Shown here piece by piece: positions 27,500 to 28,523 of a DNA stretch of 64,000 nt (positions are counted from its first letter, which is position 1; each line of letters begins with the position of its first letter). The translations under genes and the position numbers were made by a program. The notes under the pieces were generated by a model. The model was not told where the DNA came from and ran no database searches. It saw only the letters and a program-made list of their open reading frames with translations. Origin of the DNA: a virus; IMG/VR virus record IMGVR_UViG_3300036820_000012, positions 1 through 64,000 of that record. The stretch is one strand, 5' to 3'.

Positions 27500-27540
27500 A
27501 ACCGTCCCCGTGGTACGTGGCCGCGCGCAGGCCGAGGGCG
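27500..27540 (+). promoter_or_regulatory. structured leader motif, copy 1
   Basis: AACCGYCC-SCGTGGYACGT-GGCC-loop-GGCC-GA-GGGCG, repeated at 28486. Confidence 0.55.
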
Positions 27541-27575
27541 ACGGCGTGACAGGAGTTCGATGAAGGGGGAACTGC

Positions 27576-27701
27576 ATGGCCGCCATCGGTGAGCCCGTCA
27601 AGACCTACGAGATACCGGATCCAGAGGAAGTCCCCGATGAGATTCCGCAGGAGGAGCCAGCCGAGCCCGTCCGCGAGCCCGGCGCCCCCGTCCCAGCGTG
27701 A
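27576..27701 (+). CDS. 41-aa acidic Pro/Glu-rich peptide (not in ORF track)
   Basis: GAAGGGGG RBS; MAAIGEPVKTYEIPDPEEVPDEIPQEEPAEPVREPGAPVPA. Confidence 0.7.
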   Translation: MAAIGEPVKTYEIPDPEEVPDEIPQEEPAEPVREPGAPVPA

Positions 27702-27735
27702 GCCACCGGACCCGGAGAAGGAAGCAGCGGGGGAG

Positions 27736-28443
27736 ATGTCCAAAGAGGTAGCGAAGCCAGGGCTTCCGCAGGAGCCCCGGCAGGACCCGATCCGCGCCCG
27801 GAAGGCCGCGTACCTGATGGCCACCAATGAGCGCATCGGGTTCGGGCCGCTGACCCAGTCCGGCGTGATGTACGCCCCGGAAGGGGTGGCCGAGTGCCGG
27901 TGCGGTAGCTCCAGCGGCTACGTGCTGGCATCCGGTGGCAGCATCTCGGTGACACCGGGCACCTACTACGGCCTGGTCGCCAACAGCGGCGGCGGAGGCG
28001 GCTACCCGGTGGTCTACGGCGGCGGCGGTGGGGGGGGCTCGGCCTTCTATTACCCGGAGCCAGAGCCGGCCAAGCAGCACGGCCGGCCCGACCCCGACAA
28101 CTCATGCGGGTTCTACGCCTGGAAAGCGGACAGCGACCTCCCGTGGCAGGTCGGCACATGGCTGCTGGAAGTTGACCTTTACGGGACCGTCATCGAGCAC
28201 GAGAGCGGCTACCGCGCGCAGAAGCAGCGGGTCCTGTCCATCTCCCCGGTGCCGGGTTTCCTGTGCGACGAGCCCACGTCGCTGAGCGTCGATCGCGACA
28301 GCGGGCACCTGACGGCCCTTTGCCCAGCGTGCCCGTCACCAGCAGGCCACGTAGTCACCCCGGACCGCCTGCGCAGTTTCCTGAACGTGGAGGTCGACAT
28401 GACCCGCGCGTGGCGGATGCGCAAGTCCGCGACCGCTCCGTAG
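27736..28443 (+). CDS. uncharacterised Cys/His protein, possible ART-like fold
   Basis: A.C...H..P....CGFYA...EV.LYG.VIEHE.GYRA; Gly-rich insertion. Confidence 0.7.
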   Translation: MSKEVAKPGLPQEPRQDPIRARKAAYLMATNERIGFGPLTQSGVMYAPEGVAECRCGSSSGYVLASGGSISVTPGTYYGLVANSGGGGGYPVVYGGGGGGGSAFYYPEPEPAKQHGRPDPDNSCGFYAWKADSDLPWQVGTWLLEVDLYGTVIEHESGYRAQKQRVLSISPVPGFLCDEPTSLSVDRDSGHLTALCPACPSPAGHVVTPDRLRSFLNVEVDMTRAWRMRKSATAP

Positions 28444-28485
28444 CCCGAAAGCTTCCCCGTAGCCCGCTCCACGGGGGGAACGCGC

Positions 28486-28523
28486 AACCGCCCGCGTGGC
28501 ACGTGGCCTGAGGGCCGAGGGCG
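28486..28523 (+). promoter_or_regulatory. structured leader motif, copy 2
   Basis: Same motif as 27500-27540 with a different loop. Confidence 0.55.

Follow-up and report, generated by a model that had tools for sequence, protein, structure and literature searches.

Two copies of a GC-rich repeat, each roughly 50 bases long, were found to head two neighboring cargo units beside the integration site of the phage represented by IMG/VR virus record IMGVR_UViG_3300036820_000012. The window that was analyzed, a stretch of 64,000 nucleotides, is the first 64 kb of this 80,723-bp record, which has a G+C content of 68%. The sequencing runs containing the stretch are soil metagenomes and its source is an uncultured soil actinobacterial phage. 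The first cargo unit consists of a small open reading frame (ORF) and a Cys/His-rich gene, designated gene A, and the second carries gene B, which encodes a secreted protein. The original prediction held that the repeat is a riboswitch-like three-way-junction RNA that co-regulates the two downstream genes. The repeat itself proved to be real; it is carried by the sense strand, and its copies precede two adjoining gene units beside the phage attachment site (attP). It seems not to be a ligand-sensing three-way junction, however, and co-regulation of the two genes by the repeat was unsupported. We tentatively interpret the two copies as paralogous versions of an attP-flank or cassette-boundary module with simple hairpins that would act in cis on the cargo transcript, a reading that we hold to be possible, somewhat short of probable. 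The copies are located as follows.

27490-27540, plus strand: repeat copy 1, which starts 54 nt to the right of the attP centre (originally predicted core, 27500-27540).

28476-28523, plus strand: repeat copy 2 (originally predicted core, 28486-28523, which starts 42 nt past the gene A stop).

When the loop is excluded, the two copies are identical at 31 of 34 positions. The GGCC arms are the same in both and enclose 7 nt in copy 1 versus 4 nt in copy 2. A weaker similarity reaches ~10 nt further upstream, to 27490 and 28476, and the 3' edge of the similarity is sharp. Both copies lie on the sense strand, co-oriented with the genes that they precede; copy 1 ends 35 nt before the ATG of the small ORF (27576) and copy 2 ends 43 nt before the GTG of gene B (28567). 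The sequences and coordinates first assigned to the two cores were exact and the distances to the next starts were correct. Apart from the repeat, which contains a tandem direct repeat, CGTGGYA/CGTGGCC, the two upstream regions are unrelated. Searching both strands at up to 6 mismatches per 23 nt revealed no third copy, either in the window or elsewhere in the 80,723-bp record.

This intergenic pair aligned locally with a score of 21, which none of 3000 dinucleotide shuffles reached (mean 9.1, standard deviation 1.5, maximum 17.5), and our own Gumbel estimate for the score was ~2e-5. The repeat is probably real even when ~100 neighboring pairs are allowed for. Since both copies occur in adjacent, co-oriented upstream regions, it is by this placement that the repeat stands out and not through raw similarity.

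RNAalifold, applied to the two copies, preferred two tandem hairpins, designated P0 and HP2. These hairpins and the outer helix of the original prediction involve the following positions.

27495-27512, plus strand: candidate hairpin P0 of copy 1 (27495-99 with 27508-12), CACGG/CCGTG with the 8-nt loop AACCGTCC.

28481-28498, plus strand: candidate hairpin P0 of copy 2 (28481-85 with 28494-98).

27518-27534, plus strand: hairpin HP2 of copy 1, a U.G pair plus GGCC/GGCC with a 7-nt loop.

28504-28517, plus strand: hairpin HP2 of copy 2, with a 4-nt loop.

27503-07 with 27536-40, plus strand: outer helix of copy 1, CGTCC with GGGCG.

28489-93 with 28519-23, plus strand: outer helix of copy 2.

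The shared core thus comprises two small sense-strand hairpins, P0 and HP2, in which the loops vary and the stems are kept. Between the copies, one P0 pair is swapped in a compensatory way (G-C to C-G) and another changes from A-U to G-U, and the outer helix has a one-sided difference (U.G versus C-G); wobble pairs are possible on the sense strand only. All of these structure comparisons rest on two sequences and carry no statistical weight. The variable spacer between the GGCC arms speaks against a fixed-geometry palindromic protein site. Because the bases of the outer helix fall within the P0 loop, the helix can coexist with P0 only as a pseudoknot, and each copy forms all 15 pairs of a pseudoknot model, in which the copies differ by one compensatory change and by two changes on a single side. 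The minimum-free-energy fold of copy 2 was the three-way junction, and that of copy 1 was a different structure. The proposed junction was not upheld, as it is not a best fold shared by the copies, its energies are shuffle-like, the two sequences supply no compensatory pair for it, compared with one for the P0/HP2 model, and one of its arms, the CGT/ACG mini-hairpin, is broken by a natural substitution, C28502G.

Natural variants were available in the source soil metagenomes. Contigs of two soil runs were aligned to positions 26800-29400; the contigs were short, and the changes given here are among the differences listed. The alignments delimited a unit that is larger than the repeat.

28449-28569, plus strand: intergenic module containing copy 2, present at ~90% identity in other contigs, with flanks that differ on both sides.

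The depth at 28453-28539 was three times that of the neighboring sequence, and a module of the copy-2 type was kept at ~90% identity in at least three genomic contexts. One variant contig had unrelated sequence before 28449. Another (depth 29.8) joined 28569 to 29276, that is, the start codon of gene B to a position just past its stop, so that gene B was exactly skipped. In a low-depth contig of the second run, 28449 directly followed 27445, a position just right of the attP centre, so that copy 1, the small ORF and gene A were skipped. In these short contigs, 28449-28569 had the character of a moron or cassette boundary, a shared non-coding unit between differing neighbors, which suggests that the copy-2 module behaves as a movable boundary unit traveling with swapped cargo cassettes.

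Within the repeat, two variant contigs carried A28487G, C28502G and G28510A, and one of these two, as well as the second run, had one-base deletions at 28506 and 28515. A28487G is located in the P0 loop, G28510A in the HP2 loop and C28502G between the hairpins, where it breaks the middle pair of the CGT/ACG mini-hairpin. The two deletions shorten each GGCC arm by one base and the shorter stem stays perfect; the GGCC hairpin, which was also part of the original prediction, is therefore kept in the variants. Since the listed changes are either unpaired or arm-symmetric, the variants agree with the P0/HP2 model and conflict with one arm of the proposed junction.

The repeat is outside every Rfam family. 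The whole window gave no Rfam match at the gathering score, and a search of 27300-28700 with 4227 models at E<=10 returned two spurious matches only, neither overlapping the copies, in agreement with the earlier statement that no known riboswitch or ribozyme could be matched by eye. Exact-pattern scans of IMG/VR with both halves of the motif and with its variant form gave nothing or unrelated matches. A pattern scan of GTDB (185,579 species genomes, one each) gave 10 matches, where the hand-estimated chance expectation was ~10; none of the 10 had the 5' block ahead, and they were taken as coding sequence by reading, without an ORF check. When a covariance model of the two copies was run on 40 related loci, no match exceeded chance, and the next best score, 22 bits, fell inside a coding region. 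With no homologs in IMG/VR and GTDB matches at chance level, the check on homologs and covariation leaves the riboswitch reading either failing or lacking power. The element is an orphan of one uncultured phage lineage; the hints of structure are modest and its value is that of a lead.

The motif was likewise absent at 30 metagenome loci of gene A homologs and at seven loci that encode related integrases. A different conserved upstream region, GAGAACTTTGAGGTACGCTGG ... GTAGTAACAC, precedes the small ORF and gene A in their chromosomal homologs and does not include the motif. Because the loci of gene A homologs lack the motif and are preceded by this other sequence, the motif is a feature of the attP flank of the phage and not of the cargo. 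The chromosomal upstream region, located ~60-160 nt before the small ORF, contains a plausible TTGCGA-N18-TACGCT promoter and is absent from the phage copy.

In the cassette-boundary reading, the module would be a phage-specific non-coding segment that adjoins attP on its right and leads into the first cargo gene. Among relatives, a copy-2-type module seemingly lies directly beside the attP core, and the cassette of the small ORF and gene A may have arrived carrying its own version of the module; the outcome would be two modules in tandem, one ahead of each cargo unit. The function, if any, would be that of a plain leader or intercistronic stem-loop on the predicted cargo transcript. Candidate roles are protection of the mRNA 5' end, processing, a pause or insulator against read-through across attL, or control of read-through. 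Alternatively, within the same reading, the module might be a promoter-proximal DNA site. A functional module would represent a compact cis signal at the prophage end that controls the lysogen-expressed genes of temperate actinophages. To our knowledge, little has been established for high-GC phages about the ways in which such cargo is shielded from host transcription or turned on. A module that travels with swapped cassettes would also bear on moron exchange.

Several results weigh against this interpretation, 1) genome-wide, the score of the pair is ordinary, ranking 44th-96th among real same-strand pairs, and shuffled genomes hold 1-26 pairs of equal score each, depending on the scoring scheme, with 1-7 such pairs per shuffle in a crude 'intergenic' set, 2) the fold energies are at the level of dinucleotide shuffles (z -1.30, +0.21, -0.52, -0.06, -0.27 and +0.68), 3) the helices are only 5 bp and far weaker than the clear terminators of this phage, which, unlike the repeat, are long perfect palindromes, 4) the hairpins are followed by the tails GAGGGCGACGG and GAGGGCGGGAA, without a U-tract, and a terminator scan of 27300-28700 was negative, 5) in the variants, the motif has at least 5 changes in 38 nt compared with at most 7 in the other 88 nt of the module, and is conserved no better than the rest of the intergenic module, 6) the joint between 27445 and 28449 is supported by 28 matched letters at low depth, 7) with two copies and two partly seen variants only, covariation has no statistical power and 8) paired changes in DNA palindromes can arise by template switching without selection. 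An intrinsic terminator was tried and rejected, there being no U-tract behind the GC-rich stem and no terminator in the 27300-28700 scan.

A neutral scar is a serious and strong rival to the cassette-boundary module, although we judge it to be somewhat unlikely. The repeat would then have no function of its own and would be a short remnant of homology from the recombination or duplication by which the two cassettes came to be stacked beside attP, and its hairpin-keeping changes would have arisen by template switching. Such a scar is consistent with the abrupt 3' end of the similarity, the exchange of cassettes exactly at these gene boundaries in the variant contigs, a motif conserved no better than its surroundings, the shuffle-level fold energies and the failure to find homologs elsewhere. 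Against it, the repeat is the sole conserved island between upstream regions that are otherwise unrelated, all of the differences between the copies fall in loops or keep pairs, and the same type of module occurs at ~90% identity in at least three genomic contexts. It is unlikely that the repeat is instead a DNA promoter or operator, or the site of a host or phage regulator, that gates each cargo unit in the lysogen. Barring host read-through, the first cargo gene, once integrated, needs a promoter within the ~130 nt between the attP core and 27576, and the repeat, with its tandem CGTGG direct repeat, is the only block common to both upstream regions; moreover, the chromosomal gene A homologs use a different upstream region. 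On the other hand, no sigma-70-type promoter (-35/-10 hexamers with 16-18 nt spacing) was detected in 27300-28700, and the AAC-to-CGT spacing is 13 nt, which we take to be too short for a promoter of the extracytoplasmic function (ECF) type. A protein with a fixed footprint would not easily accommodate conserved blocks whose spacing differs by 3 nt, there is no third copy in the record, for example at the gene of the regulator itself, and the variants alter the CGTGG repeat (C28502G and the deletion at 28506). Repressor sites of the stoperator or operator type, which occur in many dispersed copies, the immunity region included, were rejected on the same lack of a third copy. A chance resemblance of two GC-rich intergenic stretches is very unlikely. 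Pairs of equal score do occur in the shuffled genomes and in the shuffled 'intergenic' sets, and the pair was chosen after the fact, but the score was reached in none of the 3000 pairwise shuffles, the copies are in adjacent regions, on the same strand and in the same kind of position, and the indel is exactly within a hairpin loop.

Two further explanations concern what the repeat might encode or fold into. One frame of the plus strand reads RNRPRGTWP..GRGR in both copies; in copy 2 it extends gene A past its TAG stop, and in copy 1 no stop interrupts it back to the attP core, which would allow it to form the tail of a host gene joined to the phage on integration. The four substitutions in 27497-27522 have a period of 3 (27499, 27505, 27508 and 27514) and are all synonymous in this frame, and the indel is 3 nt, as would suit a coding relic or a real coding sequence. 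Loop positions or changes that preserve pairing account for these four differences just as well. Furthermore, the G+C contents at second and third codon positions (GC2/GC3) of the two frames were 0.69/0.55 and 0.78/0.72, compared with a GC3 of 0.87-0.92 and a GC2 of 0.51-0.57 in the real genes here, the peptides diverge right after GRGR, and the copy-1 frame has no start codon in 27401-27559 (by eye, in agreement with the ORF list). The variants bring three non-synonymous changes and a net deletion of 2 nt. In view of the codon-position composition and these frameshifting variants, coding was rejected and is regarded as highly improbable. Mimicry of a tRNA or tmRNA was also rejected, as ARAGORN found neither. 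There is similarly little to recommend a ligand-sensing or RNA-polymerase-modifying structured RNA, whether a three-way junction or a P0/S2 pseudoknot with HP2, to which we assign only a minimal probability. All 15 of the pseudoknot pairs form in both copies with the changes noted above, no Rfam family matches, and a two-copy, sense-strand element heading transcription units is reminiscent of the put and nut sites of phages. Nevertheless, no conservation extends beyond one phage lineage, the thermodynamics lend no support, the mini-hairpin is broken in variants and the downstream genes have no known metabolic link. A very small pseudoknotted cis-regulatory RNA, in which the P0 loop pairs with the GGGCG tail and HP2 is inserted between, is likewise highly improbable. 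Such an element would stand at the prophage end and between cistrons, controlling expression of the lysogen cargo, and might be an antiterminator resembling put or canT, an insulator switch or the sensor of a ligand.

The genes that follow the two copies are given below.

27576-27701, plus strand: small acidic ORF, 41 aa, with a start that is conserved in related loci.

27637-28443, plus strand: gene A, 268 aa, Cys/His-rich; its start, MRFRRR, matches the N-termini of the homologs.

28567-29274, plus strand: gene B, 235 aa, secreted, with a Sec-type signal peptide and a GTG start.

The small ORF starts exactly 61 nt before the start of gene A, which it overlaps in another frame, both in the window and in 18 of 18 related metagenome loci. 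Its peptide has the form M-x-A-I-G-E-P-V-R-T-H-D-I-P-D-P in all 18, and the occurrence of this peptide at a fixed distance marks 27576 as a genuine gene start. A conserved two-gene module, consisting of the small ORF and gene A, is thus present in the 18 loci. Gene A has 80 metagenomic homologs and contains invariant Cys/His positions. It had no Pfam or PHROG match and its structure model (pLDDT 77) gave no PDB fold match at E<=0.001, so that the function of the cargo provides no clue to a ligand. Only two weak matches to gene A were found in 401 sampled Actinomycetota genomes and consequently no host was identified. Gene B has five homologs, all on short metagenome contigs, and no relative in IMG/VR. 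Genes A and B both start with M-R-F and share nine identical bases, TGAGATTCC (27637-27648 and 28567-28578), which include an AGA arginine codon, unusual at 68% G+C.

The integration site and the cargo are bracketed by the following features.

26010-27401, minus strand: large serine integrase with Resolvase, Recombinase and Zn-ribbon domains.

27411-27462: attP-like imperfect inverted repeat (TTACCGC ... GCGGTAA) of the serine integrase.

29432-29473: 42-nt near-perfect palindrome after gene B.

One soil-run contig tracked the phage up to 27445 and had unrelated letters beyond; it is probably an attL/attR junction from the integrated form in the sample. Searches of GenBank phages by megablast, blastn and tblastn gave no relative above 30% integrase identity. 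Four integrase relatives at 47-51% identity had other cargo upstream and the motif was absent. A second recombinase, a small tyrosine recombinase (25247-25978, minus strand), directly adjoins the serine integrase, and beyond it is a 471-aa protein without a family match (23835-25250, minus strand). The sequence CCGTAGCCCG occurs twice in 28438-28466, 19 nt apart and spanning the gene A stop. The resemblance of this pair plus TCCCC..GTAGC to the left attP arm was equaled in 265 of 5000 shuffles, and the true arm scored similarly (194 of 5000). The stretch at 28438-28466, upstream of copy 2, may be a relic attP half-site, a weakly supported lead.

Long near-perfect palindromes were observed at 29432-29473, 29939-29985, 62736-62778 and 6987-7027. 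That at 29432-29473 is probably the terminator of the cargo unit, an example of the strong hairpins of this phage, and the palindrome at 29939-29985 is probably a terminator as well; the two bracket the small genes past gene B. Between 38300 and 48400 there are very large minus-strand ORFs with extensive internal repeats rich in glycine codons, which dominate every repeat search of the genome and probably encode tail fibre or collagen-like proteins. Other two-copy repeats are also located at gene boundaries. The repeat at 12634-12685/13285-13333 consists of a GCCGG-ACTC-CCGGC hairpin and the ribosome-binding region before consecutive genes, and that at 20317-20349/20607-20639 is a duplicated stop/start overlap region of tandem small genes. 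Local boundary repeats are thus a habit of this genome, a point in favor of the cassette-boundary reading.

The repeat can be compared with several known systems. Mosaic temperate phages have moron or cassette boundary sequences, called linkers, at the gene boundaries where the cargo changes. The repeat resembles these linkers as a short conserved non-coding sequence at boundaries where cargo is swapped, the variants breaking at 28449 and at 28569/29276. Classical morons have a recognizable promoter and terminator, whereas neither is recognizable inside the repeat. The small pseudoknot riboswitches (preQ1, SAM-II, guanidine-III and fluoride) are comparable in their size of ~45 nt, GC-rich helices, possible H-type topology and 5' leader position. 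Unlike them, the repeat has no Rfam match up to an E value of 10, no phylogenetic spread and no link to a transporter or biosynthesis gene.

The put RNAs of phage HK022 are two copies of two stem-loops. Tn916 has an insulator terminator at the end of the element and a cis-acting antiterminator RNA, canT (PMC11658703). Like the phage repeat, these structured elements lie on the sense strand, close to the end of an integrating element and within it. The layout of the repeat, two sense-strand copies of two hairpins, is its only feature compatible with a processive antiterminator. The canT and put elements control transcription that enters or crosses the genes of the element; the helices of the phage repeat are much shorter and there is no sequence similarity.

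The nearest described kind of element, and like the Tn916 elements a precedent for the reading favored here, is the extended start-associated sequence (ESAS) of Cluster K mycobacteriophages. The ESAS are found upstream of the starts of unrelated genes and consist of imperfect inverted repeats whose spacer varies (PMC3203893). The ESAS have 17-bp arms, are tied to a 13-bp start-associated sequence (SAS) a few bases before the start codon and are present in many copies per genome (PMC3203893). By comparison, the phage repeat has arms of 4-5 bp, occurs twice in 80.7 kb and lies 35-43 nt from the start codon. The SAS, GGGATAGGAGCCC, had no match in the window with up to 2 mismatches, and membership in the Cluster K SAS/ESAS was rejected on its absence, the short arms and the presence of only two copies. 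Nevertheless, the ESAS spacer is 4-13 bp, a range that the 4 and 7 nt spacers of the phage repeat fit, and both are genome-specific repeats of actinobacteriophages, present in one orientation upstream of unrelated starts and with no known function.

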